Position numbers and translations under genes: made by a program. Shown here piece after piece: positions 7,794-64,000 of a stretch of 64,000 nt of DNA; the first letter of the stretch is position 1, and every line of letters begins with the position of its first letter. Source of the stretch: a virus (Duplodnaviria; Heunggongvirae; Uroviricota; Caudoviricetes); the IMG/VR virus record IMGVR_UViG_3300031555_003801, positions 1 to 64,000 of that record; one strand, 5' to 3'. The notes beneath the pieces were generated by a model. It was not told where the DNA came from, ran no database searches, and saw nothing but the letters and a program-made list of their open reading frames with translations.

Positions 7794-7870
7794 GTCCCAT
7801 TAGCCCAATTGGCAGAGGCGTCTGACTTAGGATCAGATCAGTGCAGGTTCGAATCCTGTGTGGGGCACCA
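7794..7870 (+). tRNA. tRNA with anticodon TAG (Leu CUN-type anticodon) but class I architecture
   Basis: Acceptor gtcccat/gtggggc (2 G-U). Anticodon arm tctga-ctTAGga-tcaga is perfect. T arm gcagg-ttcgaat-cctgt. CCA present. Confidence 0.55.
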
Positions 7871-8098: not shown

Positions 8099-8947
8099 AT
8101 GGAATTAATTGATTTTACAAAAGAGATAAATAATGCTTAGTTATTTGTAGGTTCTGGTAAAAAGAAAAAATTATTAATTAATTATAACAATGAATAGTAT
8201 ATAATTAAATTTGCTAAAAATATATGTACAAATAATCAAGGTATTATTACAAATTAGAGAGGCTTTTCAGAATATTTAGCTTGTCAAATTTATCAAAATG
8301 CAGAATTTTTTGTTTAGGAAACTTTATTAGGTTATTATAAAAATAAAAATAATATTTTAACTGCTTGTAAACTTGCAAATAATAAAATTACAGATTTTAG
8401 TTTTTTTATGGAAAAATATGATTATAAAGTAAGTAATAAATTAAATGATATTTTATTAGTTTGTAAATATATTAATATAGAAGAATACTTTTGGGATATG
8501 TTTATTATAGATGCTTTTATTGGTAATACAGATCGTAATACTGGTAATTGGGGATTATTTTATAATGAAAAATTAGATAAAATATTAAGCGTTCCTTTTA
8601 TTTTTGACTGTGAAAATAGTTTTTATCCCAATATGAATGATTATATTTTATAGAATTATTGTCAAAAAGAATTAAAAGAAATAGCTTATAATTATCCAGA
8701 ATCAAAAATAATTTATAATAATAAAAATATAAATTATTTTAATTTTATTTCTTCTTTAGAGAATGAAGATTGTAATGAAGCTTTAAAAAGAATTGTTCCT
8801 AAAATTGATATAGAAAAAATTATTTAGATTATAAATGATCTTCCACTTGAAAAAATATAGAAAAATTTTTTAATAACAATTCTTCAAAAAAGAAAAGAAT
8901 TATTAAATCTTGTTTTAATAAAACTTAATGAAAGAGAAAACCAATGA
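8099..8947 (+). CDS. HipA-like (HipA/CtkA kinase family, divergent catalytic motif) protein with 7 in-frame TAG codons
   Basis: VGSGKKKKL (P-loop-like) and FIIDAFIGNTDRNTGNWG (HipA C-terminal motif region, with D-R-N in place of D-x-H). Same frame as ORF-track fragment 8408..8653. Overlaps the E1 start (ATGA). Confidence 0.5.
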
Positions 8948-9675
8948 TTAGATATAAAGAAAATATTGATGAATTTAATTTAACAGAAAAAATTCAAAAT
9001 CAATTATTAACAAAAAATATTGCAGTAATTGGTTGTGGCGGACAAGGTGGATATACTTTAGAATTTCTTATTCGATTAGGAATTAAATCTATTATTTTTT
9101 GGGATGGAGATTATTTTGAAGAATCTAATCTTAATAGACAAATAGGCTGTTTAATTCCAACGTTACAAAAAAACAAAGCTTTATCTATGAAAGAAAGGCT
9201 TCAACAAATTAATCCAGAAGTAGAATTAATTTGTTGTGATTGGTATTTTGGAGATAAAGAAGATGATAAAGAGAAACTATCTAAAGTAGATTTTATTTTT
9301 GATGCTGCAGATTGTAATTATAATATTTTTAAATTAAGAACAATTTTAAGAGAAGTCATTATTGAATATAATATTCCTATTATTCGTTTCCCTATAAATA
9401 TATTAGGAGGTTATGTTCATATTGAAACTATGAAAGATTTAAGCCATTTTGATTTTATTACGCATAGATTAATTTATCAAAATAAAAATGAAAAAATTTT
9501 TCCAGAAGCAGTAAGTCAACCCGCTTATAAATGTGCAATTATTGCGGGCGAAGCTGTAAATCAAATGGTTCAATATTTTTCTAATTGTAGATATGCGGCT
9601 ATTGATACAACTTTAAATATTGATCTTTATCATCATAAATATGTTGAAGAAGATAGATTTGGAATTATTCCATAA
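8944..9675 (+). CDS. ThiF/MoeB/E1-like adenylyltransferase
   Basis: Rossmann motif IAVIGCGGQGGY. Signature FEESNLNRQ. 243 aa. Confidence 0.75.
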   Translation: MIRYKENIDEFNLTEKIQNQLLTKNIAVIGCGGQGGYTLEFLIRLGIKSIIFWDGDYFEESNLNRQIGCLIPTLQKNKALSMKERLQQINPEVELICCDWYFGDKEDDKEKLSKVDFIFDAADCNYNIFKLRTILREVIIEYNIPIIRFPINILGGYVHIETMKDLSHFDFITHRLIYQNKNEKIFPEAVSQPAYKCAIIAGEAVNQMVQYFSNCRYAAIDTTLNIDLYHHKYVEEDRFGIIP

Positions 9676-9678
9676 TTT

Positions 9679-9759
9679 GGGGACATAGCTCAGTTGGTGA
9701 GAGCGCAGAGCTTATACCTCTGGAATCTGTCGAAGGTTCAAGTCCTTCTGTCCCTACCA
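9679..9759 (+). tRNA. tRNA-Ile (anticodon TAT), 9-nt variable loop
   Basis: Acceptor ggggaca/tgtccct. D arm gctc-agttggtga-gagc. Anticodon arm cagag-ctTATac-ctctg. T arm gaagg-ttcaagt-ccttc. CCA present. Confidence 0.55.
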
Positions 9760-9766
9760 TTTTTAT

Positions 9767-9839
9767 TAGACACAAACAGCAAAATATTTTATGTCAAGCA
9801 AGGAACTTTTAATTCTTATAATAGCTAATAAAGTGTCTA
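9767..9839 (+). repeat. Hairpin-flanked element 'e': TAGACAC / GTGTCTA with ACAGCAAA (9776-9783)
   Basis: Inverted repeat enclosing ~57 nt with no tRNA. Lies between tRNA-Ile(TAT) and tRNA-Ile(GAT). Confidence 0.5.
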
Positions 9840-9846
9840 GAAAATA

Positions 9847-9923
9847 TTGAGAAGTAGCTCAGATGGTTAGAGCGCAGGTCTGATAAACCTGAGGTCGTGA
9901 GTTCAATTCTCACCTTCTCAACC
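9847..9923 (+). tRNA. tRNA-Ile (anticodon GAT), second copy
   Basis: Acceptor tgagaag/cttctca is perfect. D arm gctc-agatggtta-gagc. Anticodon arm caggt-ctGATaa-acctg. T arm gtgag-ttcaatt-ctcac. CCA present. Confidence 0.75.
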
Positions 9924-9932
9924 ATATTAATA

Positions 9933-10009
9933 TCTGGGTATAGCTCAGTTTGGCAGAGCGCCTGATTTGGGTTCAGGAGGCCGCAAGTTCGAATCTTGCT
10001 ACTCAGACC
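9933..10009 (+). tRNA. tRNA-Pro (anticodon TGG), canonical copy
   Basis: Acceptor ctgggta/tactcag. D arm gctc-agtttggca-gagc. Anticodon arm cctga-ttTGGgt-tcagg. T arm gcaag-ttcgaat-cttgc. CCA present. Confidence 0.75.
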
Positions 10010-10325
10010 AGTCCACCGTTTATGTTTTCCTTTCCTACTTTTGGAACATAAGAATAAGGTGGAGAAAGTAGGGCCGCTTAACCGGTTTATATTTATTAGT
10101 AGGCTGCAGAGCCATGTGTATATAGTATTTTTAAATCTCGCAAAAGTCTCACGATATGTTAAGATATCGCGCTGCTGTAATATGTGAATAATGTGAGTAC
10201 GCAATTTTATAAATGAGTATCGGCCTTGGTGTGGATGTTGATGGAGAGGCGACACGGAGCTCTACTTCGTATCTTTGGTGTCAGAGGTTAATTGTCTAAA
10301 ATCGAGAAAATTTATAAAATTATGT

Positions 10326-10420
10326 GGAGGCGTACCGAAGTGGCTATAACGGCGCAGACTTGAAATCTGTTGTGTCAGCTAGTACCTGACGCGGGGGTTC
10401 AAATCCTCCCGCCTCCGCCA
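10326..10420 (+). tRNA. tRNA-Ser (anticodon TGA), class II
   Basis: Acceptor ggaggcg/cgcctcc is perfect. Anticodon arm gcaga-ctTGAaa-tctgt. Long variable arm. T arm ggggg-ttcaaat-cctcc. CCA present. Confidence 0.75.
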
Positions 10421-10463
10421 ATAACAATGAAGAGTTAAAGGCCTGTAAGGACTTTAACTATTA

Positions 10464-10813
10464 CGGGGCTGAAAATGGTTTCGACAGGGTTGTGAAAAAT
10501 TTTAAATCCGCAGGTGTGATTTACCTTACAAATCAAACTTAAATATAAACGCAAAACCTTATAGATTAGCTGCCTAATTAATTGGTAGGCCTAAACGACA
10601 TGCTTGTTGTTCAGCTAAATGTCTGCGGCTCGAGGAATAGAACAATCACCCCAAAGTTTCTTAATTCTTTTTCAAAAATTAAGTGGTGGATACGATGTTT
10701 GTAAAGTGTCTTTACAAAACCCTGAGTTGGTTATCTCTAAAATAACCTATTGCGTAAGTATGATTTAAAATTAGTAACAGTTTTGGACGCGAGTTCGACT
10801 CTCGCCAGCTCCA
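10464..10813 (+). ncRNA. ssrA: tmRNA (ssrA-like transfer-messenger RNA)
   Basis: 5' end GGGGCTGAAAATGGTTTCGACAGGG (tmRNA tRNA-like domain). 3' end ggacgcgag-ttcgact-ctcgc-cagctcc-a (T arm + acceptor pairing with GGGGCTG). Internal tag-like reading frame GCA AAA CCT TAT AGA TTA GCT GCC TAA (…AKPYRLAA*) ending in the typical LAA + TAA. Confidence 0.65.
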
Positions 10814-10866
10814 GGCATCAAGAGATAAACCTTCACGTGGTGATGCTGATTTCGACAGATTATCTC
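10812..10866 (+). repeat. Copy 2 of the ~55-nt structured element (immediately 3' of the tmRNA)
   Basis: catcaagagataaaccttcacgtggtgatGctgatttcgacagattatctcaaaaa. One substitution relative to copy 1. Confidence 0.5.
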
Positions 10867-10898
10867 AAAAATTGTTCTCATTTTCTTTATTTCTATTA

Positions 10899-11052
10899 AG
10901 ACTCAATACAGCAAAATTATAAAACTTGTTTAGGCAATATATAAACTCTACAGAAAATGTGCTGGTGACACGCTTTCACTGTTGTTATTATTTGATAGTA
11001 AGAAAAACAGGGATAATAACGCTAATAAAAACTGTTAAATTCTTTTGAGTCT
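10899..11052 (+). repeat. Hairpin-flanked element 'f': AGACTCAA / TTGAGTCT enclosing ~140 nt, with ACAGCAAA at 10908-10915
   Basis: 8-bp inverted repeat. The insert has no ORF. The suppressor tRNA follows directly. Confidence 0.45.
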
Positions 11053-11061
11053 AGTATTAAA

Positions 11062-11151
11062 GCTCCGTAGTCTAATGGTAAAACGCCGGACTCTAAATCC
11101 GTTATACTCTCTGAAAGGGTAATCTGGGTTCGAATCCCAGCGGGGCCGCCA
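11062..11151 (+). tRNA. Amber suppressor tRNA (anticodon CTA, reads UAG), class II with long variable arm
   Basis: Anticodon arm (c)cgga-ctCTAaa-tccg(t) with U33 and A37. Variable stem tactct/agggta. T arm ctggg-ttcgaat-cccag. Acceptor agctccg/cggggcc (1 A-C at 1-72) + g + CCA. The D arm is irregular. Confidence 0.6.
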
Positions 11152-11160
11152 ATTTTTAAT

Positions 11161-11193
11161 AGCCAGTTTATATTTTTATAAACTGGCTTTTTG
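11161..11193 (+). terminator. Rho-independent terminator closing the tRNA array
   Basis: agccagtttata-ttttt-ataaactggct followed by tttt. Confidence 0.7.
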
Positions 11194-11201
11194 TTATTTA
11201 T

Positions 11202-11230
11202 TTGAAAAAAATTAAAAAATATGATATAAT
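11202..11230 (+). promoter_or_regulatory. sigma70-like promoter TTGAAA-N17-TATAAT
   Basis: ttgaaa 11202-11207, tataat 11225-11230 (tgaTATAAT). Confidence 0.6.
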
Positions 11231-11264
11231 AAACTATGATAAAAAATAAAAAAGGATAAAATAT

Positions 11265-12230
11265 ATGGAATTAATTGACTTTACGAAAGCAATAAATAAT
11301 GCTTAGTTATTTAAACCTACTGGTAACAATAAAAAAAAATTAAAAATTATTTATAATAATGAAGAATATATAATAAAAACTTCAAAATATACAATTGAAC
11401 AAGATAAAGAAAATAAATATAAAATGATTGAATTGTATAATACAATATCGGAATATTTAGGTTGTAAAATTTATGATAGTTTAAATATACCTGCACAAAA
11501 AACTTTATTAGGATATTATTAGTATAAAAATAAAAAACAAATGATAATTGCTTGTAAAAATTTTAATATTGATGATAGTTTTCTTCCTTTTGGTATATTC
11601 TTTAATAAAGAACGACAACAAGATAATAATAAATTGCAATCTTTAGAAATAAAAAATATTATAAAAAAAATTGAAGAACAAAATATTTATGATTCTCAAA
11701 AAATAAAAAAACGTTTTTGGGATATGTTTATTATTGATGCTTTTATTGATAATCCCGATAGAACTTCTGGAAACTGGGGTTTTATAAAAGATAAAAAAAC
11801 AAATACAATCATAAATTTTTGTCCAATTTTTGATTGTGAATAGAACATATTTTTAGAAATACTATTAAAAAATAAAAAACAATTATTAAATAATTAGAAT
11901 AAAATAAATTTTTTAGCTATATCGCCTTTTAAAAAATCTTATTTAATTTATGATAATAAAGTTATAAATTATTTTAATTTTATTTCCTCTTTAGAAAATG
12001 AAGATTGTAATGAAGCTTTAAAAAGAATTGTTCCTAAAATTGATATGGAAAAAATTATTTAGATTATAAATGATCTTCCACTTGAAGAATTCCAAAAAAA
12101 TAATTTAATAATAGTATTAAAAAAAAGAAAAGAATTATTATTAGATTTTCCTTTATTTCTCTTACAAAATATAGATAAAAGAGAAAAATACGAAAAAAAA
12201 ATAGAAAGGATAATATATGATAAATTATAA
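11265..12230 (+). CDS. HipA-like paralog with 5 in-frame TAG codons
   Basis: MELIDFTKAINNA*... FIIDAFIDNPDRTSGNWG. Same frame as ORF-track fragment 11541..11843. Its C-terminal ~125 bp is a near-exact direct repeat of the 3' end of 8099..8947. Stop TAA at 12228-12230 overlaps the ycaO start. Confidence 0.5.
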
Positions 12231-14007
12231 AAATCATTATAAAGAACGAAAACCAGAGGAAACAATAAAAATTATAGAAAACTTTTTTTTAAATCTCAAT
12301 ATGAAAATTAAAAGAAATGAAGTTATGATTAGTGAAATAAATACTTATTCAATACAAATAATATTATTTGATAAAAATGATTTTTTAATTTTATACGCTA
12401 ATGGTAAAGGTGAAACAGAAGAATTTGCAATTGCCTCTGCTTATGGCGAATTATATGAACGTTTCTGTAATATGAGATTTATTATGAAAGATGGTATTGC
12501 TCAAAATTTATTTTTACAAAAAAGAAAACAAAAATATAATTATTATTATCATCCAGAAGAAAAAGAATTTTCTTTAATAGAATTAATTAATGCCGATCAA
12601 AATTTTCATAATTTTTTCTTAGGAGATTTTTCTGAAAAAGATTCTGATATTATTAATTTTTATAATACACTTTTTAATAATAAATTTATTGCTGCGCCTT
12701 ATCAAGATTTATTAGATTCAAATAAACAATATTTTTATAACCCATATTTAATGACAGTGTTAAGAGGATCTGGCGGAATGGCTGCTGGAAATACATTAGA
12801 AGAAGCTTTAAATCAAGGCATTTCAGAACTTTACGAACATTATATTACAGATAAATTTCGTTATTTAAAAAAAGATTTTGATTTTCATTTTATAGATATT
12901 TCAACTATTAAAAACCAAAAATTAAAAGAAAAGATAAAATTATTAACAGATAATGAAAACTATGAATATTATTTAATTGATTTTTCTTATAATTTTAATG
13001 TACCTGTTTTATTATCTATTTTAATTGATAAAACTTTACAAAGATTTTTTATTAATTTTGGTTCTTTTCCTATTTTTGATATTGCTTTAGAAAGAACATT
13101 AACAGAATTATATCAAGGAGTTGTTTCTTTTAAAGAAGAAGAACAATCAAATAATATTATTGTTCCTTATAAAAGTGGAGTAACTATTATAGAAGCTTTA
13201 GACGCTACAGCAAATGTCACTAATTCTCTTTGTTTAAATGAAAGTTTTTTATTAAGTGAAAAAAAATTTTATTCCCCTAATTCAAAAATATTTTTATTTA
13301 ATCAGGATAAAAATTATTCAAATGAAGATATATTAAATTATTATAAAAAATTATCTTCTTATTTAAATATTAATTTTTGTTATTTAGATGTATCTCAATC
13401 TTCTGAAATGCATGCTATACAAATTTATAGTATAAATTTACCTCATTTCTCGTTACCTTTGGAAGCAAAAAAAATGCTTTACAAAAAACAACAATTAAAT
13501 GTTTATAAATTATTATCATATTTTATTCAGTTAGAAAATAAATGGCTAAATAATCATATATGGGATAATTTATTATGGGAAAAAATAATAATTTTATATA
13601 ATCAATTTACTATTGAAGATATTTTATTGTTTAATATTAGTGCCTCTATATTTTGTTTTAATTTTAGTAAAACTAATAATCTTTTATCATTAATTGAACA
13701 ATTTATAAAAATGGATTCAAATATTTATATGATTGAAGAACAAATTATTGCTATGTCTAATAAATCAATTCTTTCAGAAGATATTAAAAAATTCTTAACT
13801 CAATATAGGTATATTGTTAATAATGATTATCTTCCAAGTGAAAAAACTAAAATATTAAAAACTTTAATACCAGAATTTTCACAAGATGAAACATTATTTA
13901 AAAATATTATTACTCCAGAATATTTCTTACAAGTAATAATGGAAAAATTATATGAATATTATCATAGTGAAAAATATTCTGATTATCTTGATGCTTTAGT
14001 TGGATAA
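12217..14007 (+). CDS. YcaO-domain protein
   Basis: ANGKGETEEFAIASAYGELYERF matches the YcaO ATP-binding/cyclodehydratase signature. 596 aa. No TAG codons. Confidence 0.7.
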   Translation: MINYKNHYKERKPEETIKIIENFFLNLNMKIKRNEVMISEINTYSIQIILFDKNDFLILYANGKGETEEFAIASAYGELYERFCNMRFIMKDGIAQNLFLQKRKQKYNYYYHPEEKEFSLIELINADQNFHNFFLGDFSEKDSDIINFYNTLFNNKFIAAPYQDLLDSNKQYFYNPYLMTVLRGSGGMAAGNTLEEALNQGISELYEHYITDKFRYLKKDFDFHFIDISTIKNQKLKEKIKLLTDNENYEYYLIDFSYNFNVPVLLSILIDKTLQRFFINFGSFPIFDIALERTLTELYQGVVSFKEEEQSNNIIVPYKSGVTIIEALDATANVTNSLCLNESFLLSEKKFYSPNSKIFLFNQDKNYSNEDILNYYKKLSSYLNINFCYLDVSQSSEMHAIQIYSINLPHFSLPLEAKKMLYKKQQLNVYKLLSYFIQLENKWLNNHIWDNLLWEKIIILYNQFTIEDILLFNISASIFCFNFSKTNNLLSLIEQFIKMDSNIYMIEEQIIAMSNKSILSEDIKKFLTQYRYIVNNDYLPSEKTKILKTLIPEFSQDETLFKNIITPEYFLQVIMEKLYEYYHSEKYSDYLDALVG

Positions 14008-14153: not shown

Positions 14154-15710
14154 ATGAATAAGTTTTTAAATGGATTAACTGATGCAACTAACTTCACTTA
14201 CACTGAAAATGGTGCTATTACCCATAAAACTACTAAGTCTGCTCTGTTAGATATGTTCGCACTTGGTGGAGCATATAGAACTAGAAGTGACGCAGAAGTA
14301 ATCACCTTATTTAAGAACGCATATGAGGAAAATCCTGTTTATGCGTTAAAGTGCCTGTTCTATCTGCGCGACGTGCGTGGCGGACAGGGTGAAAGAAGAT
14401 TTTTCAAAACTGCAATGAAGTGGTTTGCTAATGCTGATGTAGAAGCAGCAAGAAGAAATTTCAAGCATATTCCAGAGTTTGGTAGATGGGATGATTTATA
14501 TCTTTTCATTAATACGCCTCTTGAAAATGAAATGTTCCAGTTTATGAAGGAACAGTTAGCACTCGATATGCAGTGCAAAACACCTTCTCTGTTAGCAAAG
14601 TGGTTAAAGTCTGAAAATACATCTTCTATGGAATCCAGATATCTGGCTAAGAAGACTCGTCAGTATTTTGGCATGACCGCAAAGCAGTATAGAAAGACAT
14701 TATCTATCCTCCGTGAAAGAATTAATGTTCTTGAAAGATTAATGTCTGCAGGTAAGTGGGATGAAATCGAGTTCGATAAGATTCCTTCTAAGGCAGGTTT
14801 AATTTATAAGAATGCTTTTGCTAGACACGATATCGAAAGAATGAAGACTGAAAAGGCTGTAGTATCTTATGCGGATTTCGCTAAGGATGTAACTACAACT
14901 GTAAATGCTAAGGCATTATATCCATATGAAGTAGTAGCTAAGGCTATTGATTTAATGGGATATAATGGTGGTTGGTTCCGTAGCACTCATGATGTTCCAT
15001 TAGATAATACTGATAGACTTATGATTAATAAATATTGGAATAATCTCGCTGATTATATCCAGGGTGCTAATTTTAATGGAATTGCAGTGGTAGATACTTC
15101 TGGTTCTATGACTGGTTCTTTTGCTAGTGCACCAATTAATGTAGCTGTTTCTCTTGGCATGTATTGTGCTGAAAAAAATAATGGTCCATTCAAAGATCAC
15201 TTCATTACATTTGAATCTAATCCTCATTTAATTAAGGTTGAAGGCGTAGACTTTTGCGAAAAGGTTTATAATATTACTGGCGCAGACTGGGGTGGTTCTA
15301 CAAATATTGAAGCAGTGTTTGACTTATTATTAGATACTGCTATCAGAAATAATTGTTCTCAGGATGAAATTCCACAGAATGTAATTGTTATTTCTGATAT
15401 GGAGTTTAACTCTTGTGTAACTTTTAATAGCTTACTTGCAAGAAGATATTATAATGAACCTATGTTTAATACTGAAACTTTATTCGAAACCATGGAACGC
15501 AAATGGAATAGAGCAGGATATCAGATGCCTGCAATTACATTCTGGAATGTTCAGGCAAGACAGAATAATATTCCAATGAAGACTGAAGGTAGAGTAAATT
15601 ATGTATCTGGTATGTCTCCAGTAATCTATGAACAGGTTATGAAAGGTTTAAGTGCTTACGATCTGATGATGGATAAGTTAGATAATGAAAGATATAGCGT
15701 AATTTGCTAA
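14154..15710 (+). CDS. vWA (MIDAS) domain protein with large N-terminal helical domain (Ro60/TROVE-like architecture possible)
   Basis: MIDAS motif VVDTSGSMTG. 518 aa. Clearly higher GC and different codon usage than flanking phage genes. Confidence 0.55.
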   Translation: MNKFLNGLTDATNFTYTENGAITHKTTKSALLDMFALGGAYRTRSDAEVITLFKNAYEENPVYALKCLFYLRDVRGGQGERRFFKTAMKWFANADVEAARRNFKHIPEFGRWDDLYLFINTPLENEMFQFMKEQLALDMQCKTPSLLAKWLKSENTSSMESRYLAKKTRQYFGMTAKQYRKTLSILRERINVLERLMSAGKWDEIEFDKIPSKAGLIYKNAFARHDIERMKTEKAVVSYADFAKDVTTTVNAKALYPYEVVAKAIDLMGYNGGWFRSTHDVPLDNTDRLMINKYWNNLADYIQGANFNGIAVVDTSGSMTGSFASAPINVAVSLGMYCAEKNNGPFKDHFITFESNPHLIKVEGVDFCEKVYNITGADWGGSTNIEAVFDLLLDTAIRNNCSQDEIPQNVIVISDMEFNSCVTFNSLLARRYYNEPMFNTETLFETMERKWNRAGYQMPAITFWNVQARQNNIPMKTEGRVNYVSGMSPVIYEQVMKGLSAYDLMMDKLDNERYSVIC

Positions 15711-15947: not shown

Positions 15948-16751
15948 TTGTTTTATAAGAAAGGATTTTTAATGAAATATTTTATTGATTTTGAAGCCAA
16001 TAGTCCGACGAATGAAATCATTGAAATAGGTTGCGTTTCTGAAAAAAATGATTGTTTTAAAATGTATGTTAAACCAACTACACCTATTGACCCATTTATT
16101 ACGGGATTAACGCATATTACAAATAAAATGGTAGAAGATTCTCCTTTAATTGATGAAGCAATTATGATTTTTTATAATTGGCTTATCAATACGCAGGAAC
16201 ATTTTTCTTGGAAAGATACTACTTTTTATTGCTATGGAAATGCGGATCATTCATTTATTCAGGCTTCAGCACAAACTTGCGAAACAACTGATTCTTATAT
16301 GATTCTTGCGGCTATGGCTATGTCTTTGAAAGATTTTACCAAGAAAGTAAATCATTTCTTTAAAGATAGTATTTCTTTAATCCAGGCATTAAATTATTTT
16401 AAAACCTCGGAAACAGCTTGGGAGCAGTGTCATGATGCTCTTGAGGATGCGCTAGCTTTAAAAGAATTATATAAAGTTTTACCAAAAAAATATTCATTAC
16501 CTTGTTCTCCATTTGTTATTAAAACAGAAATGGGTGTTAGAAGAAATAAAAAAGGTTATGGATATACTGATTATATTAGTTTAACAGAAGCTACTGAATG
16601 TGTTGTAAAAGAAATATTAACAACATCACCAAATTCTAATGTTAAATCTGAAAATATTAGAAAAAGAATTATTCATGCTATTAATAAGAAAAGTTCTTAT
16701 ATGGGATATAAATGGAAATATGTAAAGATTGAGAAAGGGGATGAAGAATAA
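15948..16751 (+). CDS. DEDDh-family 3'-5' exonuclease (DnaQ/RNase T-like)
   Basis: Exo I motif FIDFEANSP..EIIEIG. Exo III motif HDALEDALAL. The true start is probably the internal Met at MKYFIDFE. Confidence 0.65.
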   Translation: MFYKKGFLMKYFIDFEANSPTNEIIEIGCVSEKNDCFKMYVKPTTPIDPFITGLTHITNKMVEDSPLIDEAIMIFYNWLINTQEHFSWKDTTFYCYGNADHSFIQASAQTCETTDSYMILAAMAMSLKDFTKKVNHFFKDSISLIQALNYFKTSETAWEQCHDALEDALALKELYKVLPKKYSLPCSPFVIKTEMGVRRNKKGYGYTDYISLTEATECVVKEILTTSPNSNVKSENIRKRIIHAINKKSSYMGYKWKYVKIEKGDEE

Positions 16752-18169
16752 TGTATTAGGCATATGTAACTAAATTAAAAAATGTGCGGCCGCACCCTAA
16801 TGCTGATAGAATGCTTTTAGCAGACTGTTTCGGCAATACTGTTTGTGTAGGCCTTGACGCGCAAGAGGAAGATGTAATTCTCTATTTTCCAACAGATGGA
16901 CAATTATCTAAAGAATATGCGGAAATCAATAATCTTATAAGAATCAAGAATGAAGATGGAACATATTCCGGTGGATATTTAGACCCAGATAAAAGAAACA
17001 TCAAAGCAATTAAATTAAGAGGTGAAAAATCTGATGGTTTAGTAATGCCACTAGAATCCCTTTCTTCTTTTGGAGATATTTCTACTTTAAATATTGGAAA
17101 TACAATTAATGTCTTTAATGGACATGAAATTTGTAAAAAGTATATTCCAAGAGAAAATCCAATGAAGGTGCGCGCTGGCGGTAATAAGACCCGCAAGACC
17201 AAGCGCCTAATTGCTCCTTTATTCAAAGAACATGCTGATACTGAACAATTAGCATATAATCTTGATGCTTTCAAAGCGGGAGATGAAATTGAAATCACAT
17301 TAAAGATGCATGGAACTTCTCAAAGAACTGCTTACTTACCAAAATTAATTGGTTATAAAAGATCTATTTTAGATAGACTCTTAAAGAGAGAAGGAACTCC
17401 AATCTATGATTGGGGCTATGTGTCTGGAACTCGTAGAACTGTTGTAGATGATTTTGAAAATAGAACAACTTCTTTCTATGGTAGTGATGCATTTAGAGAA
17501 CCGCATGCAAAAATGTTTGAAGGAAAGCTTTATAAGGGTGAAACTGTTTATTATGAAGTTGTTGGTTTTACCGATAATGGAACTCCTATTATGGGTTCTT
17601 GTGATAATAGAAAAACTCAAGATAAAGAGTTTATTAAGAAATATGGTGAAGTGACTACTTTCTCTTATGGTTGTGACTGTGCGGAACAAGCATGGAGAGA
17701 AAATAGAGGACAAGATCCAGACAAACCTCAGTCTGACATTTATGTATATCGAATGACAATGACTAATGAAGATGGTTATGTAATGGAATTAACTCCTGAT
17801 TATATGAGATATAGATGCGAGCAGATGGGTGTAAAGACAGTGCCTGTTATGTGGAAAGGATACATTCCTTATACAGTAGATGACATTGATTCTACTATTC
17901 CTGGTCACAGAATTATACTTAGAGAAGGGGAAAATGCTGGAGACTGGGTTAAGAGTGTAGCAGAACAGTATTACGATGGACCTGACCCAATTGGTAGAAC
18001 CCATGTGCGGGAAGGTGTAGTTGTAAGAATTATAAATAGACCAAAATTTGCAGCATATAAGCATAAAAACTTTAGCTTCAAAGTTCTCGAAGGAATTGTC
18101 AAAGCGGATGCATTAATGCCAGATATGGAAGAAGCACAGGAGACTATTGATGAAAGTTCAGAGATTTGA
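16751..18169 (+). CDS. ATP-dependent RNA ligase (Rnl2/Rnl5-like, nucleotidyltransferase motif I KMHGTS) with N-terminal OB-like domain; codon 3 is TAG
   Basis: ATG TAT TAG at 16751-16759 joins onto ORF-track frame 16784..18169. LKMHGTSQR resembles the KxHG(T/S)N motif I of the Rnl2 family. GC-richer than the surroundings. Confidence 0.55.
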
Positions 18170-20989: not shown

Positions 20990-22177
20990 ATGTCAAATTG
21001 TAATGAAAATAATTGTTCTTCTTTAAAAGAATTAATTACAAATTATAAATATAATAATTTATTACCAATTCATGGGATTTTATCTGTTACAAATAGATGT
21101 AATTTAAATTGTTCTTATTGTTTTCATAAACAAAATGAAATAGATATAAATTTTTATACTGCGGATATGGCTATAAAATATATTATTTCAAATGCGACTA
21201 TTCAAAAAGTAAAACCTAATATTAGCTTTTTTGGAGGAGAACCTTTATTATTATTTGATGAAATAATAAAACCATTAATTAATAAATATAAAGATTCTAT
21301 AAATTGGACTATTACAACAAATGGAACTTTATTAACAGAAAATATTATAGATTTTTTTACTGATAATAATGTTTCTATTTTATTATCTATGGATGGATGT
21401 AAAAAAGTTCAAGACAATCAAAGGCCTATGAAAAATGGAGAAAGTTGTTTTGATAAATTAAAAAATATCATTCCATATTTATTATTAAAGCAACCTAATA
21501 CTATTTTTAGGTCAACAATCTCAAGATATTCTTTAGATTTTTTAGAAGAAAATATTAATACGGCTAAAAATTTTGGTTTTAAATATATTACATTAGTGCC
21601 TAATTTATTTGAAGAATGGCAACCAGAAGATTTTTATAAGTGGGAACAATTTATAGATAATGAATCTATTAAAATTATGCAAAAAATTTCTTGGGAAGAA
21701 CCTTTTGATTACATATTAACAAATTTAAAAGATGGTATTCAAGGAATTTATAAATCTAATCAAAATAATTATTTAAAAAATCCTATTGATGCTTGTGGAA
21801 TGGGCTTTAAAGGTATTGGAATTTCTCCAAATGGAAAATTACATCCTTGTCAAGAAGAAAACGGTGTAGATGATATAAATATTATAGGTGATATTTATTA
21901 CGGAATTGATAAAAAATTACATGAACAATACTGTAAAGATATTTATAATAAATGGTTAGAATATATAGAAAAAATAGATAATATAATAGGAAGTTCTAAT
22001 TTTAAATTATTTTATGGAAATCATGTTTGTAATACAAGATTAAAAGATGGATTTGCTTTTAATAATACACAAACATATTATTTAAGAGCTTTACATAGAG
22101 CTTGTTCAAGATTATATTATAATTTTAATTTATCTTTAAATCCAAGAGCACAATATTTTTTAGGAGAAATTGAATGA
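20990..22177 (+). CDS. Radical SAM enzyme with C-terminal SPASM/twitch-like Cys cluster
   Basis: CNLNCSYC (CX3CX2C) near the N-terminus. C-terminal CGMGF...HPCQEENG cysteines. Confidence 0.8.
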   Translation: MSNCNENNCSSLKELITNYKYNNLLPIHGILSVTNRCNLNCSYCFHKQNEIDINFYTADMAIKYIISNATIQKVKPNISFFGGEPLLLFDEIIKPLINKYKDSINWTITTNGTLLTENIIDFFTDNNVSILLSMDGCKKVQDNQRPMKNGESCFDKLKNIIPYLLLKQPNTIFRSTISRYSLDFLEENINTAKNFGFKYITLVPNLFEEWQPEDFYKWEQFIDNESIKIMQKISWEEPFDYILTNLKDGIQGIYKSNQNNYLKNPIDACGMGFKGIGISPNGKLHPCQEENGVDDINIIGDIYYGIDKKLHEQYCKDIYNKWLEYIEKIDNIIGSSNFKLFYGNHVCNTRLKDGFAFNNTQTYYLRALHRACSRLYYNFNLSLNPRAQYFLGEIE

Positions 22178-23373
22178 TTACTTTAAACTTACATATAAAT
22201 TATAATTGTCCTTTATCTTGCCGATATTGTTGTCAAAGAAATGATATAGCTTTATTAGATTCTGAATTTACTGCTCAAGAAATGATTGATGTAGTACAAA
22301 ATTTTATGGATTCTAAAAATGTTGATAAATGTAAAATAAATATATCTGGAGGAGAACCTCTTTTAAAATATAAAGATATTCAACAATTAATGAAACATTT
22401 TCCAAATAATACTTATGAAATTTCTACTTCTGGATATTTATTAACTGCTGAAAAAGCTAAATTCTTTTCTTATTATGGAGTTAGTTATATTTTATCTGTT
22501 GATGGGGGAGAAAAAGTAACTAATTATTTAAGACCTCTAGCAAATGGAGAACAAGGATATTTTCAAAAATTAAAAGAAAATATACCACATATTTTATATT
22601 ATGCTCCAAGAACAAGAGCAAAATTAATTGTTCCTAAAAATTTAATTTCAGAAATTTTTAACACTTATTTAGAATTAGAAAGACTTGGTTTTCAAGAAAT
22701 TTTTATAACACCTAATGTATATGAAAATGAGGTTGATACACATCATCCAGAATTAGAGACAGGTCATTGGGAAGAAGAAGATTGGAATAAATTTAGAACT
22801 GAAATTTTTAAAATTATGAAAGAAATAGAATTAGGTATTTCTTTAAATCGAAAAAGATGTTTAATTACTAATATTATTACTATTTTAGTAAAAATGTTAA
22901 TTCCAGAAGAAGGAAAATTTAATAGTGCTAAATTAATTTGTGAAGTATTAGATTTTAAAGGCGGAACAAGTCCTGCTGGTGGGCAAGTTCCTATTTTAAA
23001 TACAGATATTTCTTTATGTATGAGAAATATAAATGAAGAAATTGATACTCAAGAAAAACTGTTAAATAAAATAAAACAAGATTATTTAGCTCTTAATGGC
23101 GTTTGCGAGCTAGATGAAAAATGTCCATATCAATCTACTTGTATGTATAGTGTTTGTTTATCTGAAAATTTAAAAAGTAAACATAAAAATATTTTTACTC
23201 CAACATTATTTCAGTGTAATACTCAAAAGATTTATCATGATGCAGCAATGTTATTTTTAAATCTTTTAAATGATAAAAATAATGAAGTTATAAAATATTA
23301 TTGGAATGAAATTTATTATAGAAAAGAGGTGTCTATGAATAATGCCTTATTATCCAGCTGGAACGGTGAATGA
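22174..23373 (+). CDS. Second radical SAM/SPASM-like enzyme
   Basis: CPLSCRYC (CX3CX2C). C-terminal CELDEKCPYQSTCMYSVC Cys cluster. Overlaps the upstream gene by 4 nt. Confidence 0.75.
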   Translation: MITLNLHINYNCPLSCRYCCQRNDIALLDSEFTAQEMIDVVQNFMDSKNVDKCKINISGGEPLLKYKDIQQLMKHFPNNTYEISTSGYLLTAEKAKFFSYYGVSYILSVDGGEKVTNYLRPLANGEQGYFQKLKENIPHILYYAPRTRAKLIVPKNLISEIFNTYLELERLGFQEIFITPNVYENEVDTHHPELETGHWEEEDWNKFRTEIFKIMKEIELGISLNRKRCLITNIITILVKMLIPEEGKFNSAKLICEVLDFKGGTSPAGGQVPILNTDISLCMRNINEEIDTQEKLLNKIKQDYLALNGVCELDEKCPYQSTCMYSVCLSENLKSKHKNIFTPTLFQCNTQKIYHDAAMLFLNLLNDKNNEVIKYYWNEIYYRKEVSMNNALLSSWNGE

Positions 23374-31577: not shown

Positions 31578-32342
31578 TTGAAAAGAAAGGGGTTGAATAT
31601 TTTGGCATCTAAAACTACAGCTAAGCAAGTCCTTGCCGCAGCAAAAGGTGAAATTAGAGAAAAGAAATATGGAAAGCCTAATAAGTATAGCAGATGGTAT
31701 TATGGGAATGAAACCAAAGCTGCTTGGTGCGGGATTTTTGTTAAATATGTAATTGAAAAATTATGTGGGGATAAAGAACTTCTTGCCGGATGTTCTAATT
31801 TCGCATATGTTCCTACCATTCATGAATGGGCAAAGAAAAAAGGTTATGTAAAATATTCTCCAGAACCAGGAGATTTAGTAATCTTTGACTGGAAATGCGG
31901 AAATGGTATTCCTGAAAGAGACCATGTAGGTTTCTGTGTAAAAGATAATAAAAATGGAACTATTACTACATATGAAGGAAATACTTCTTCTGTCTCTAAT
32001 GGTAATGGAGATTGCGTTCAATAGAGAATAAGAGATAAAAAATTTGTTCTTTGCTACATAAGACTTCCATATAAAAAATCTAAAACTACAGCAAAAAAGA
32101 AAACAAAATATACTGGTGAATTTCCTACTGCATTAGTAAGTGTTGAAAAAGGAACTAAAACTAATATTAAAAGATGGTAGAAATTCCTTAACTGGGCACT
32201 TGACGCGGGACTTACTGTTGATGGTATTTTCGGCACAATGTCTATGAAAGCTACAAAAGAGTTCCAAAGAACTGTTGGAATTGCGGACGATGGTATCGCT
32301 GGAACTAATACTATAACAAAGGCGAAAAAATATGAAAAATAA
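31578..32342 (+). CDS. Endolysin: CHAP-domain peptidase + C-terminal peptidoglycan-binding (PG_binding_1-like) domain, 2 in-frame TAG codons (32022, 32178)
   Basis: CHAP Cys/His motifs (AWCGIFV, HVGF). C-terminal LNWALDAGLTVDGIFGTMSMKATKEFQRTVGIADDGIAG reached only through the TAGs. Confidence 0.7.
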
Positions 32343-42209: not shown

Positions 42210-43160
42210 ATGGATATAATAATATATAGTTTAATTGGTGTCTTAACTGGTGGTATTATAATTTATTTTATAATGCGATCAAAAGTAAAACAAAGAGTTT
42301 TTTTAGATACCGAATTAGAAAAAGAAAATAGTAAATTAAGACAAGAATATGAATTTCTACGTGATGAATATGTCAGAATAAAAGCATAGAGAGAATCTAT
42401 TATAGAAAATTTAGGCATGTTAGAAAAGTAGGCAAGGCAATCTGCTGAAGTTTTTTATCAAAAGAATATGGAGATTGCATAGCAAAATCTTGAAGCATCA
42501 TTAGAAAAGTTTAGTCAAGAAATCCAATAGTCAAAAGATTAGTATGAAGCAGAATATTTAGCAATTATAAAAGATTTAGCAGATAAAGCATAGCTAAAAA
42601 CAGAAGAAGTTAATAAACTTATATCTGATTTAGATAATGAACTAAATGAAAAACAATCTATTGTTAATGCAGCTGTTGAAGCAAGTAAACGAGCAAAAGA
42701 AATGGAAGAATCTAAAGATTTTTATCGTTTATAGCTATCAGATACTGATGTTGATGAAATTGCGCGACTTCGCTCAGTAGTTCCTTATTTGCGAAATGCT
42801 GAACCAATTAATAAAGTTATTTGGAAAGTTTATTATGAAAAACCATATACTGATTTAATTGGTAGAGTTATTGGTTCTGGCGTTCACACCGGCATTTATA
42901 AAATTACTAATATGGAAAATAATATGTGCTATGTTGGTCAAGCCGCTAACTTATCAGAGCGTTGGAGACAACATATTAAGCGTGGTGTCGGCGCAGAAGC
43001 TCCAACCCGCAATAAACTCTACCCAGCTATGGAAGAATTTGGGGTAGAGAATTTTACATTTGAAGTAATTGAAGAGTGCGATAGAGCTAAACTTGATGCG
43101 CAAGAAGATTATTGGCAAGAATATTTTAAAGCAAAAGAATTTGGTTATAGTATAAAATAA
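42210..43160 (+). CDS. Membrane-anchored coiled-coil protein with C-terminal GIY-YIG nuclease domain, 7 in-frame TAG codons
   Basis: N-terminal hydrophobic segment. Coiled coil KA*RESIIENL...EIA*QNLEASLEKFSQEIQ*SKD*YEAEY. C-terminal GIYKITNMENNMCYVGQAANLSERWRQH. The ORF track shows only the last 123 codons (42789..43160). Confidence 0.6.
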
Positions 43161-60796: not shown

Positions 60797-61350
60797 TGTA
60801 CAATATTATTGCTATTATGGGTAAAGCAGGTAGTGGTAAGGATACTATTTTAAAATAGGTCCTTGCCGCAAGACCTCTTGAATTAAATGAAATTATTCAA
60901 TCAACAACACGACCAATGCGAGAGGGAGAGACAGAGGGCGTTAATTATTATTTTTTAACAGAAGAACAATTTGCTTATAAAGTATTAAGTTATGAAATGC
61001 TTGAAGCAAGTCTTCATAATTGGTATTATGGTACAACCTATGAGGCATTGAGAAGTGATGTTACTAATGTTGGGGTTTTTAATCCTGAAGCATTGAATTA
61101 TATTTATAATAATAAAAATATAAATTTAAGAGTATTTTATATTCATACAGATGATAAAATAAGATTATTAAGACAATTAAATAGAGAACAAAATCCAGAT
61201 GTAAATGAAATTGTTCGCCGATATGGAACAGATGCAAGAGATTTTAATCCGGGTGATTTTGATTTTAAATATACTTTATTAATAAATAATGAAGAAGAAG
61301 ACTTACAAAAATGTGTAGATCGTATTATAGAAGCTATTGGGCAATTTTAA
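60796..61350 (+). CDS. Guanylate kinase-like nucleoside monophosphate kinase, 1 in-frame TAG (60856)
   Basis: MYNIIAIMGKAGSGKDTILK*VLAARPLELNEIIQSTTRPMREGE (P-loop + S-TTR-R-GE motif) from ATG 60796, in frame with ORF-track 60916..61350. Confidence 0.6.
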
Positions 61351-61415
61351 TTAATTTTGTAGCCGCAACACACAAATAAATATACGACTACAAAATATAG
61401 AAGGAGGTTATAATC

Positions 61416-62672
61416 TTGATCAATATAAGAAAACGAAATGGAGAATTAGTTCCTTTTAATAAACAAAAAATTGTCGATGCTATCAACGGCGCACTTGTTG
61501 AAGTTGATGGTCTTCTTTATGAAGAAGATACTGCTAATAGTATTGCAGAAGATGTATATCGTGAAGCAATTAAAAGAGAATTAACAGTAGAAGACATTCA
61601 AGATTTAGTAGAACATTATTTAATGACTTCGGAGCGTAAAGATGTTGCGAAGGCATATATTAGATTTAGATATAAAAAAGAAGTTGCTAGAAATTATAGC
61701 AATGATTTTATTGAAGCAATTAAAGAAAAACTTCGTGCAGAAGATGTTCAAAATCAAAATGCAAATGTTGATGAACATTCATTTGGTGGTAGAACAGGAG
61801 AAGCATCTGGGGTTGTTACTAAAAGACTTGCTTTAGATTTTTTAATCTCTCCAAAAGCAAGAGCAAATCATGAGAATAATATGATTTATATTCATGATTT
61901 AGACAGTTATTTTGTAGGTTCTCATAATTGTTTATCTGTTCCTTTTGACCATTTATTAGCAAATGGTTTTAATACAAGACAAACTGATGTGCGGCCAGCA
62001 GGTTCTGTAAATACAGCATTCCAGTTAGTTGCTGTAATTTTCCAATTACAATCATTACAGCAATTTGGTGGTGTATCTGCAACTCATTTAGACTGGACAA
62101 TGGTTCCTTATGTTAGAAAGAGCTTTGCAAAACATTATAAAGATGGATTAAAATATCTTGCTGATTGGGAAGGTATTGATTATTCCATTGAAAATATGTT
62201 AAAAAACGCAGTAGATTATTCTATTGATGAATTAGATTATAGTGCTTATTGTGATAAAGCATATGAATATGCTATTGATCAAACAAGAAAAGAAGTTCAT
62301 CAAGCAGTAGAGGGTTTATATCATAATTTAAATACATTACAATCTCGTTCTGGTAATCAATTACCATTTACAAGTATTAATTATGGAACTTGTACTCTTT
62401 CAGAAGGAAGAATGGTAATTGAAGAATTATTAAAGGTATCTATTGAAGGCTTAGGTGCTTTACATAAAACATCTATTTTCCCTTGTGGAATTTTCCAATT
62501 AGGAAAAGGTATTAATAGAGAACCTGGTGATCCTAACTATGATTTATATCAGTTAGCATTAGAATCTACTTCAAAAAGATTATATCCTAATTATGCTAAT
62601 ATTGATTGGTCTGGTAATGCAGGATATGACCCTAATGATCCTAAGACTTATTTCTCAACGATGGGTAAGTGA
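61416..62672 (+). CDS. nrdD: Anaerobic ribonucleoside-triphosphate reductase NrdD, exon 1
   Basis: ATP-cone INIRKRNGELVPFNKQKIVDAI and class III RNR core. The ORF stops at 62672 but NrdD sequence resumes about 0.9 kb downstream. Confidence 0.75.
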   Translation: MINIRKRNGELVPFNKQKIVDAINGALVEVDGLLYEEDTANSIAEDVYREAIKRELTVEDIQDLVEHYLMTSERKDVAKAYIRFRYKKEVARNYSNDFIEAIKEKLRAEDVQNQNANVDEHSFGGRTGEASGVVTKRLALDFLISPKARANHENNMIYIHDLDSYFVGSHNCLSVPFDHLLANGFNTRQTDVRPAGSVNTAFQLVAVIFQLQSLQQFGGVSATHLDWTMVPYVRKSFAKHYKDGLKYLADWEGIDYSIENMLKNAVDYSIDELDYSAYCDKAYEYAIDQTRKEVHQAVEGLYHNLNTLQSRSGNQLPFTSINYGTCTLSEGRMVIEELLKVSIEGLGALHKTSIFPCGIFQLGKGINREPGDPNYDLYQLALESTSKRLYPNYANIDWSGNAGYDPNDPKTYFSTMGK

Positions 62673-63557
62673 AAATGCAGCTCATCTAAAATCTTTTGAA
62701 CCTCGCCCGAGGGTGTTTCTTAAAGAGGCTAACGGTTAGGTCTTATTAAAAATAGTTCATTTAATAAGATGAGACCGTGCTAAGATTCATCATAATATTC
62801 ATCATAAGGTGGTGAATATAATGGAAATATATAAAATTACAAATAAAATAAATGGTAAAGTTTATATAGGCCAAACAATTCGTCCTGTTTAGTATCGTTT
62901 TCATAGACACATAAATGATGCAATGCGAAATATTATTGATACACATTTCGCAAGAGCAATTAGAAAATATGGTCCAGATCAATGGCTTCTTGAAGTTATT
63001 GATAACGCGGAAACACAGGAAGAATTAAATCAAAAAGAACAATATTGGATTCAATATTATAATTCTGTTGAAGAAGGATATAATGAAACCGACGCAATCA
63101 ATAAATGTGGCGGAAATACATATCGTTCTAAAACAGAAGAAGAAATGGAAGTTATTAAAGAAAAAATTCGTCAAACAAAAATAGGTAATAAAAATCCTAT
63201 GGCTAAAAAAATTAAACGAATTAATATTCAAACTAGTGAAATTGACATCTTTGAAACGATTATTAATTGTGCTAAGGCTTGTGGAATTAATAATGGAAAA
63301 ACTTCTATTACAACAAGATTAAATGGACAAATTAAAAGTCCATTTAAAGGAAAATGGCTATTTGAATATTATGATGAATAAAGTGTATCGACTATCCCTG
63401 ATGAATGTAAGGGAGTAGGATGTGAGATAGGCGCACATTCGAAGCGGAAGACAACCTCACTTTTGTGAGATGAAGATATAGTCAGCGCCAATGGTGACAT
63501 TGGATAAACGTGTGTAGAACCGCAAATGGCTGGGATATTAATGGACTCGGCCAACAG
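62673..63557 (+). mobile_element. Group I intron in nrdD carrying a GIY-YIG homing endonuclease ORF (boundaries approximate)
   Basis: Intron-like 5' segment contains ACCGTGCTAAGAT (P7-like CCGTGCTAA element of phage group IA introns). It interrupts a conserved gene, as in the T4 nrdD intron. Confidence 0.55.
62821..63381 (+). CDS. Intron-encoded GIY-YIG homing endonuclease, 1 in-frame TAG (62890)
   Basis: MEIYKITNKINGKVYIGQTIRPV*YRFHRH...YNETD (GIY-YIG). Joins ORF-track 62923..63381. Confidence 0.7.
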
Positions 63558-64000
63558 AAAGATGGAAGAGGAAATATTTGTCCTGTTACAATTATTTTAC
63601 CAACACTAGCAATGGAAGCTGTAGAACTAGCAGATAATTTTAGCGAAGATAGTTGGAGCACTGAATTAGAATTAAATATTTTCTTTGATATGCTTGAAGC
63701 AAAGATTGATGAAGCAAAGGATATGTTAATCGAAAGATTTGAATGGATTGCTTCACAGTCACCTAAAGCTGCAAAGTTTATGTATGAAAATGGTTTAATG
63801 GCAGGATATGTTCCAGAAGAAGGAATTAGAAGTGCCCTTAAACATGGTACACTAGCAATCGGTCAATTAGGTCTTGCGGAAACACTTCAAATCTTAATCG
63901 GCACAGACCATACAACTGAAAAAGGTATGGCGTTAGCAAAAAGAATTGAACAAATGTTCAAAGATAAATGTGCGAAATTCAAGGAAGAATATAAATTAAA
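63558..64000 (+). CDS. nrdD: NrdD exon 2 (partial, runs off the window; 5' boundary approximate)
   Basis: ...KDGRGNICPVTIILPTLAMEA... matches the conserved GRxNxGVVTxNLP region of class III RNR, followed by further NrdD-like sequence to position 64000. Confidence 0.6.

Follow-up and report, generated by a model that had tools for sequence, protein, structure and literature searches.

Near the right-hand end (positions 61,416 to 64,000) of a 64,000-nucleotide (nt) stretch of the IMG/VR virus record IMGVR_UViG_3300031555_003801 (Duplodnaviria; Heunggongvirae; Uroviricota; Caudoviricetes), which was analysed over its whole length and is called the window below, nrdD, the gene for anaerobic ribonucleotide reductase, is broken by an insert that carries a small open reading frame (ORF) for a putative GIY-YIG homing endonuclease, itself crossed by an in-frame TAG. 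The locus raises the question of how an intact NrdD would be made and what the TAG means for the gene embedded in the break. Taken as a whole, it is very probably explained by a mobile group I intron in nrdD whose endonuclease gene is TAG-recoded.

The nrdD gene and its predicted splice junction

The ORF that opens at 61416 closes at a TGA at 62670-62672 (total span 61416..62672), and its product comprises the ATP-cone and, from the N-terminus, two thirds of anaerobic ribonucleotide reductase. The gene and its insert are laid out as follows.

61416..62666, plus strand: nrdD exon 1, 417 codons, encoding the ATP-cone and the N-terminal part of the NRDD domain
62667..63512, plus strand: predicted group I intron of the IA2-type subgroup (P7.1/P7.2 present), ending in the omega-G at 63512
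63513..64000, plus strand: nrdD exon 2, first codon TGT (Cys418), extending beyond the window end

Exon 1 ends in ...ACG ATG GGT and exon 2 starts with TGT AGA, and the only junction that gives ...ATGGGT|TGTAGA... (STMG|CRT) is 62666|63513. When 61416..62666 is joined to 63513 onwards, a single frame results, …DPKTYFSTMG|CRTANGWDINGLGQQKDGRGNICPVTIILPTLA…, the nucleotide sequence across the predicted ligated junction being …ACGAUGGGU|UGUAGAACC…. The insert measures 846 nt, that is, 3 × 282, and both exons lie in the frame of 61416. In these respects the initial annotation requires correction: it placed the end of exon 1 at 62672, an ORF end that includes an intron-encoded Lys codon and the TGA, the 5' splice site lying after U62666; it let exon 2 resume near 63558 instead of 63513; and it assigned the exons to different registers, although only the endonuclease ORF differs in frame.

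The predicted spliced protein matches Pfam NRDD with 309 bits, in addition to the ATP-cone, and aligns with the NrdD structure PDB 8p23 (…ATMGCRT…) without a gap over the junction (E = 2e-86). In the protein alignment, Cys418 lies opposite Cys290 of T4 NrdD, which we take to be the radical cysteine of that enzyme. The missing end of the gene is supplied by the IMG/VR contig L061, which is identical to the window over 1323 nt and extends past its end; there, exon 2 has 329 codons, with a CxxC…CxxC zinc site and a terminal RVTGY glycyl-radical motif, and nrdG lies downstream of nrdD. The full NrdD after intron removal is accordingly predicted to have 746 codons.

Comparison of the junction with intron-less NrdD, as proposed in the initial annotation, supports the same boundaries: ATGGGN|TGYMGN is uninterrupted in 58 distinct intron-less relatives, an allele of the L014 type reading …TTCTCAACGATGGGTTGTAGGACCGCC…. 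The codons on both sides of the site differ between the two types of allele, the Gly codon being GGT in 34/34 intron-bearing versus 13/58 intron-less alleles and the Arg codon being AGA or AGG in 33/34 versus 24/58, which is consistent with constraints imposed by the P1 and P10 pairings or with co-conversion during homing. An intein was also considered as the nature of the insert and ruled out by the exon-frame stop within it (TGA at 62670) and by the lack of intein domains.

Evidence for a group I intron

When the core of the insert, with the ORF excised, was compared by blastn, it led to the T4 nrdD (sunY) intron via an exact block of 31 nt, CGACTATCCCTGATGAATGTAAGGGAGTAGG, which covers P7 to P7.1. 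A global alignment with the T4 sunY core that runs from the internal guide sequence (IGS) to P9 comprises 201 aligned columns with 66% identity. The T4 sunY intron is known to self-splice.

Covariation was assessed in an alignment (A1) built with MAFFT from 34 distinct intron cores, with the P6a loop excised. The derived structure, which takes in P1, P10, P3, hairpin A, P4, P5, P6, P6a, P7, P7.1, P7.2, P8, P9, and one loop-loop pairing, contains 65 pairs in 16 helices, and 95.2% of the cells are paired versus 80.1% in shuffled alignments; both sides change in 37/65 pairs, and the covariation score is 0.397 versus 0.122 in shuffles, none of 500 of which reaches the observed values. When the 3' partners are slid as a control, pairing falls to 36-47%. 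Individual helices are paired almost throughout (P3, P4, and P8 100%, P6/P6a 97-100%, P7 99.5%), and double changes occur in P3, P4, P5, P6, P6a, P8, and P9. P7.1 is paired at 92.6%, with double changes in 4/4 pairs, and the P7.2 stem covaries as well, its lower pairing of 76.5% resulting from the misalignment of 11 sequences that have an additional hairpin.

The features at the two splice sites are equally conserved. In 33/34 introns the 5' splice site is marked by a U.G wobble, and the intron-terminal G (G63512; core column G274) is invariant in 34/34. The distal pair of P1 (CG 15, GC 11, AU 3, UA 2) varies in step with the third, synonymous position of the Thr codon, such that ACG, ACC, ACA, and ACT go with guide C, G, U, and A, respectively. 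By homology, family membership, and covariation, that is, at the level of sequence comparison, it is established that nrdD is interrupted by a group I intron, and on this central point the initial annotation is upheld by junction continuity, homology to T4 sunY, and covariation over 34 homologs.

Structure of the intron

P1 is formed by the exon strand GAUGGGU (62660-62666) and the internal guide GCUCAUC (62680-62686), with U.G at the splice site, and P2 is absent from the window intron. The other elements, all on the plus strand, are placed by covariation in A1 and by comparison with T4 sunY as follows.

62676-62679: P10 strand
62680-62686: IGS
62692-62697 / 63446-63451: P3 (UCUUUU/GGAAGA)
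62732-62736 / 62774-62778: P4
62741-62769: P5
62780-81 / 63382-83: P6
62785-62800 / 63364-63379: P6a, a 16-bp stem whose loop holds the ORF
63390-63395 (GACTAT) / 63478-63483 (ATAGTC): P7
63396-63413: P7.1
63420-63438: P7.2
63452-63472: P8
63488-63503: P9
62701..62728: hairpins A (62701-62712) and B (62716-62728), between the 5' strand of P3 and J3/4

The element ACCGTGCTAAGAT (62774-62786), which had been noted as P7-like, turns out to be the 3' strand of P4 and the start of P6/P6a, P7 being formed by the two strands listed above. An assignment of CUCAUC to P3, made by analogy with the nrdD intron of Thomasclavelia phage TR-TP2, was likewise discarded, given that covariation makes CUCAUC part of the IGS.

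Compared with T4 sunY, hairpins A and B amount to 32 inserted nt. Within hairpin A, the loop (GCCC, 62705-62708) is predicted to pair with the loop of P7.2 (AGGC, 63429-63432), the latter being conserved as AGAUAGGCR, and the kissing pairs covary in A1 (CG:17/UA:16 and GC:28/AU:2/UA:2). Compensatory variants of the kissing loop are numerous and independent, and they include GCC/GGC, GCU/AGC, GCCAA/UUGGC, UCUUA/UAAGA, UACUA/UAGUA, and UGCUCG/UGAGCA. A published description of this arrangement of hairpins A and B with an L7.2 kissing loop was not found, specialized group I classifications not having been compared. In two relatives, L088 and L161, hairpin B bears an extra insertion of ~200 nt that encodes a small ORF (MFSYIQYFP…); a GIY-YIG ORF in P6a is also present in L161, and the scan did not recover one in L088.

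The intron-encoded endonuclease

The following features concern the gene carried in the P6a loop.

62821..63381, plus strand: ORF of the putative GIY-YIG homing endonuclease, ATG at 62821, 186 codons, TAA at 63379-63381
62790..62824, plus strand: hairpin over the Shine-Dalgarno sequence (AAGGUGGUGA) and AUG of the endonuclease, -12.5 kcal/mol, z = -5.15 vs shuffles
62890-62892, plus strand: in-frame TAG, the only one in this ORF; it is codon 24 of the endonuclease and precedes the catalytic Arg by two residues

The ORF occupies the P6a loop, in frame +1 relative to the exons, and its last codons (…GAA TAT TAT GAT GAA T) double as the 3' strand of the P6a stem. The presence of a free-standing GIY-YIG ORF in the insert, as described in the initial annotation, is borne out by a match to Pfam GIY-YIG (PF01541) of 33.2 bits (cut-off 22.6), and over its whole length the ORF matches the PHROG families 314 and 7168, both 'homing endonuclease'. 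Alignment to the catalytic domain of I-TevI (1MK0/1LN0, E = 8e-6) shows that the equivalents of IY, VYIG, Arg27, Glu75, and GYN (Asn90) are kept. No Pfam domain was found in residues 95-186; this C-terminal part is conserved among the 186-amino acid (aa) orthologs, a form present in at least seven other loci, and some homologs of the endonuclease reach 250-300 aa. The ratio of nonsynonymous to synonymous substitution rates (dN/dS) against four of the 186-aa orthologs is 0.12-0.17, and the region past the TAG is therefore under purifying selection.

Two observations bear on expression of the gene. The hairpin listed above encloses both the Shine-Dalgarno sequence and the start codon, and it may limit translation of the endonuclease. 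Scans of 61200-64000 for Sigma-70 promoters and terminators yielded nothing above the shuffled expectation, and thus no separate promoter for the endonuclease is indicated.

TAG as a sense codon

The TAG at 62890 had been regarded as unusual for a homing endonuclease. The codon is indeed there, and full-length translation of the ORF does require that it be read through; what does not stand is its exceptional character. Reading through TAG raises the plus-strand ORF content of the window from 15,746 to 18,181 codons, and ~52 in-frame TAGs lie in the called ORFs. TAG interrupts conserved domains in PhoH and in the guanylate-kinase-like, CHAP endolysin, NrdG, and RuvC-like proteins, and reading it through unites pieces of conserved proteins. 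The genes concerned include the following.

PhoH: 7 in-frame TAGs
CHAP endolysin: 2
Guanylate-kinase-like, after the P-loop: 1
NrdG, in FTxGC: 1
RuvC-like: 1
Second GIY-YIG gene: 1

On these grounds TAG is judged to be a sense codon throughout the phage and not peculiar to the endonuclease. Its usage is very uneven: it makes up 30-54% of the Gln-type codons in some genes and is zero in those for DNA polymerase III alpha, gyrase, ligase, and helicase, as well as in both nrdD exons.

At conserved positions, the commonest residue opposite TAG is Q. A PhoH TAG stands opposite the Q of the conserved TGDxTQxD motif in PDB 3B85, and the counts are Q 21 and S 0 for the RuvC-like gene, Q 10, E 9, and S 2 for the guanylate-kinase-like gene, and Q 7 for ORF 42204. 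In the endonuclease itself, the column of codon 24 holds E in 14 orthologs and Q in 8, the closest orthologs using GAA or CAA, and TAGs of other phages within this endonuclease family fall in columns that are Q in 24/25 (YIGQT) and 22/25 sequences. Most likely, then, the meaning of TAG is glutamine, as far as alignments can tell. One related endonuclease ORF in an nrdD intron (L155) contains three in-frame TGAs, of which two coincide with Trp columns and the third with a Phe column; by such alignments the endonuclease family spans phages of the standard code and phages predicted to read TAG as Gln or TGA as Trp.

A candidate decoder, required for the endonuclease TAG as well as for the other ~50 in-frame TAGs, is encoded at some distance.

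11061..11151, plus strand: suppressor tRNA with anticodon CUA, 91 nt (ARAGORN; Rfam tRNA 51.2 bits)

This tRNA(CUA) has a long variable arm of 6 bp, an A1xC72 mismatch, and G73. Long-arm tRNA(CUA) genes of 82-92 nt occur in nine further IMG/VR contigs (L203-L211), several of them with the acceptor stem UGGGGUA/UACCCCA, which we take to be that of E. coli tRNA-Gln. This suggests that the tRNA(CUA) is a suppressor similar to tRNA-Gln to which an extra arm has been added.

Alternative explanations

Several observations speak against a mobile group I intron with a recoded endonuclease, or against one component of it, and they have to be set beside the competing explanations. The Rfam group I intron model RF00028, with which the initial annotation had proposed to fix the splice sites, remains below threshold: at the gathering score, Rfam finds no group I intron in the whole window or in 13 related loci, a permissive scan with RF00028 gives 24.7 bits (E = 7e-4; gathering score 50) over the 3' half only, and the ORF-less relative L058 has zero match. 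That the model recognizes this type of intron follows from the positive control, the T4 nrdD intron, which scores 105.3 bits; the core here is interrupted by the P6a ORF and bears insertions, and hairpins A and B with the kissing loop probably explain the failure on this family. A shortfall of this kind would suit a locus in which the halves of NrdD are separate polypeptides that assemble without splicing, as in nrdA/mobE of Aeromonas phage Aeh1, with the insert as a free-standing endonuclease cassette, and the same could be said of the GTG codon at 63510-63512 immediately ahead of exon 2 and of the two coding sequences (CDSs) given in the public annotations of relatives. Such an arrangement is extremely improbable in view of the non-coding flanks of the ORF, which are kept as RNA structure with compensatory changes and pairings to both exons (P1 and P10), and of the versions of the element that lack the ORF at the identical site. 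Moreover, exon 2 is not preceded by a Shine-Dalgarno sequence, the break separates two neighboring residues of the MGCR active-site motif, and homology links the element to the T4 sunY intron, for which self-splicing is experimentally known. The initial annotation had itself allowed for separate subunit genes without a group I core; a core is detectable by homology as well as by covariation.

For the embedded gene, the unfavorable points are that comparable Shine-Dalgarno hairpins are found in only ~10/26 related introns and that TAG accounts for 1/10 of the Gln-type codons of the endonuclease, which is no enrichment. Homing endonuclease genes of introns often degenerate, and it could be supposed that this one is a decaying pseudogene, in which translation truly ends at the TAG at 62890 with a peptide of 23 aa and the intron, like that of T4 nrdB, is not mobile; the 186 codons of the gene fall short of the 250-300 aa of some homologs, and at codon 24 orthologs have GAA or CAA, both of them sense codons. 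That is very unlikely, given that TAG splits conserved domains in many clearly functional genes of the window, that a tRNA(CUA) is encoded, that the 186-aa form is retained elsewhere, that every catalytic residue is present, and that the low dN/dS applies to an ORF of which 87% lies downstream of the TAG. A different question is whether a translated TAG might specify a residue other than glutamine, for example, serine. The long variable arm and the A1xC72 mismatch are atypical of tRNA-Gln, a long variable arm and G73 are used by seryl-tRNA synthetase, which ignores the anticodon, and the column of the NrdG TAG in relatives holds almost as many S (47) as Q (51). Decoding as serine or another residue is nonetheless unlikely: Q, not S, prevails at the TQxD motif of PhoH, at the RuvC-like, guanylate-kinase-like, and ORF 42204 positions, and at YIGQT, and the acceptor stem of related long-arm suppressor tRNAs is the presumed one of tRNA-Gln.

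Proposed route of splicing and homing

If the locus is a mobile group I intron with a TAG-recoded endonuclease, the intron would fold in the transcript into a ribozyme of the IA2 type, similar to those of sunY and td. The guide GCUCAUC would pair with the last seven bases of exon 1, the U.G pair marking the 5' splice site, and an exogenous guanosine would attack after U62666; exon 1 would then be joined to exon 2 past the omega-G at 63512, resulting in a 746-codon NrdD in which the catalytic Cys418 heads exon 2. The endonuclease presumably cuts the intron-less nrdD of co-infecting relatives near ...ATGGGN|TGYMGN..., and repair would copy the intron into the cleaved allele. Its codon-24 TAG would be read by the phage's own tRNA(CUA), such that the full-length enzyme is produced only when the suppressor is active, and the hairpin over the Shine-Dalgarno sequence and AUG may act as a second brake. 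With nrdD free of TAG and the endonuclease both dependent on the suppressor and equipped with an occluded ribosome-binding site, it is logical to speculate that the endonuclease is delayed relative to NrdD.

An intron family targeting nrdD

In a tblastn comparison of the spliced NrdD with 80 related IMG/VR loci, nrdD was found to be broken at residue 417/418 in L039-L042, L045, and L058/L059. A motif from the 5' portion of the intron, AAAAYCTTKTGAAC(N8-16)GGTGT, matches at least 119 IMG/VR stretches, and nearly all parsable matches lie at NATGGGT|…|TGYAGA of nrdD. The family includes ORF-less copies of 0.2-0.35 kb at the identical site (L058; the Lactococcus phage 949/AM/LW81 group), and presence of the intron is sporadic among close nrdD relatives. 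Given that a large family of nrdD introns is missed by the Rfam model, counts of introns in phage metagenomes that depend on this model are too low.

In addition, nrdD is a hot spot for introns within this group of phages. Relatives have insertions at residues 218/219, ~306 (the T4 site), 314/315, and 397-409, as seen in L044, L053-L056, L047/L048, L075, and L001 (Thomasclavelia phage TR-TP2, 4000-4877), and their public records list the pieces of nrdD as separate CDSs. Group I introns have been described as often fragmenting the nrdD of Jug phages, with metatranscriptomic support for splicing (PMC12880540).

Relation to known systems

Group I introns, GIY-YIG endonucleases, and stop-codon recoding are all established biology, and the window intron is a well-supported further example and not a new kind of system. 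The likeness to the T4 nrdD (sunY) intron with I-TevII that the initial annotation had pointed out holds for the host gene, for the homologous core with its 31-nt block and 66% identity, for a similar IGS and J1/3-P3, and for the presence of an endonuclease that is also of the GIY-YIG family by annotation. It does not extend to the insertion site, which in T4 is a Tyr codon in …AYE|YEVNTL…, ~114 codons upstream, whereas the window intron lies at Gly417|Cys418, or to the position of the ORF, which is in the P9 region in T4 sunY and in P6a here. T4 sunY also has no counterpart of hairpins A and B or of the L7.2 kissing loop, and T4 uses the standard code.

In the position of its ORF, the window intron resembles the T4 td intron with I-TevI, the ORF of which is likewise in P6a and the catalytic domain of which can be aligned. 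The td host gene is, however, thymidylate synthase, and I-TevI has 245 aa compared with the 186 aa of the window endonuclease, which bears a TAG and a C-terminal region without a recognized domain. Translation of I-TevI is controlled by a hairpin at the ribosome-binding site, to which the hairpin of the window is similar.

The nrdD intron of the Lactococcus phage 949/AM/LW81 group belongs to the same family, occupies the exact site (…CCAATGGGT|…|TGCAGA), and has both hairpins, A and B, as well as a kissing loop that covaries (UCUUA/UAAGA). It differs in being ORF-less, ~0.3 kb long, and resident in phages of the standard code, and the public record has two separate CDSs. The insert in Lactococcus phage nrdD has been termed a 'non-coding intron' (PMC3653736). 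The closest nrdD of cultured phages, with ~71% nt identity, is that of Thomasclavelia phages TR-TP1/TR-TP2, which has a td/sunY-like intron adjoining the same Cys codon. In TR-TP2 the intron is inserted 4 nt upstream of the site in the window (after …ACC AT) and has an HNH endonuclease, a P2, and no hairpins A/B, unlike the window intron with its GIY-YIG endonuclease and no P2. Exact splice sites give the correct 746-aa NrdD where automatic annotation makes two or three CDSs, and cultured relatives, among them Lactococcus phage 949 and Thomasclavelia phage TR-TP2, call for the same amendment.

For a recoded intron endonuclease there is one published precedent, in which the endonuclease of a group I intron in an early gene of Agate phages contains in-frame recoded TGA and late production has been proposed (bioRxiv 10.1101/2021.08.26.457843). 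In Agate phages, where TGA is read as Trp, this codon is significantly enriched in the endonuclease, in contrast to the window phage, with TAG as probable Gln, a single TAG, and no enrichment. The locus adds a TAG-to-Gln example to this case of a code-dependent intron endonuclease. Most original are the peripheral architecture of the intron family and its invisibility to RF00028. It is possible, although doubtful, that the intron represents a distinct, undescribed IA2 structural variant with a kissing loop, unseen by RF00028, widespread in phages, targeted nearly always to the Gly|Cys junction of NrdD with its radical cysteine, and associated with endonucleases in three codes; on that tentative reading, the resident code could serve as a timer for the endonuclease and as a barrier to the spread of introns between codes.

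Other features of the window

The window has a GC content of 30% and contains 21 tRNA genes, a transfer-messenger RNA (tmRNA), and a ROOL RNA toward its left end. The full-length ROOL RNA (5099-5707; Rfam RF03087, 337 bits) lies within the tRNA array, abutting tRNA-Gly. The phage tmRNA (10465-10814) has the tag peptide AKPYRLAA* and precedes the suppressor tRNA by ~250 nt. Leu anticodons (UAA and UAG) are found in two tRNAs (7712-7788 and 7794-7870) that are only 77 nt long and lack the long variable arm, unlike normal bacterial tRNA-Leu, and whose Leu identity is uncertain.

Further GIY-YIG sequences are a free-standing gene in the tRNA array (2980-3597), with a TAG within the GIY motif region, and a C-terminal domain fused to an N-terminal part with transmembrane and coiled-coil segments and seven TAGs (42210-43160). 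Two paralogous TAG-rich genes, 8099-8947 (seven TAGs) and 11265-12230 (five TAGs), flank the region of the tmRNA and suppressor tRNA; they have no Pfam match, and their C-terminal ~60 residues are near-identical. Pfam matches to ThiF-like, YcaO, and two radical-SAM genes in 8944-14007 and 20990-23373 suggest a peptide-modification set like that for ribosomally synthesized and post-translationally modified peptides (RiPPs). An RNA ligase-like gene (16751-18169) and a DUF2828/DUF7788 protein (14154-15710) are also present. Lysis genes of recoded phages are reported to use the recoded stop, and in line with this, the endolysin (31617-32342), composed of CHAP and PG_binding_1, has two in-frame TAGs.

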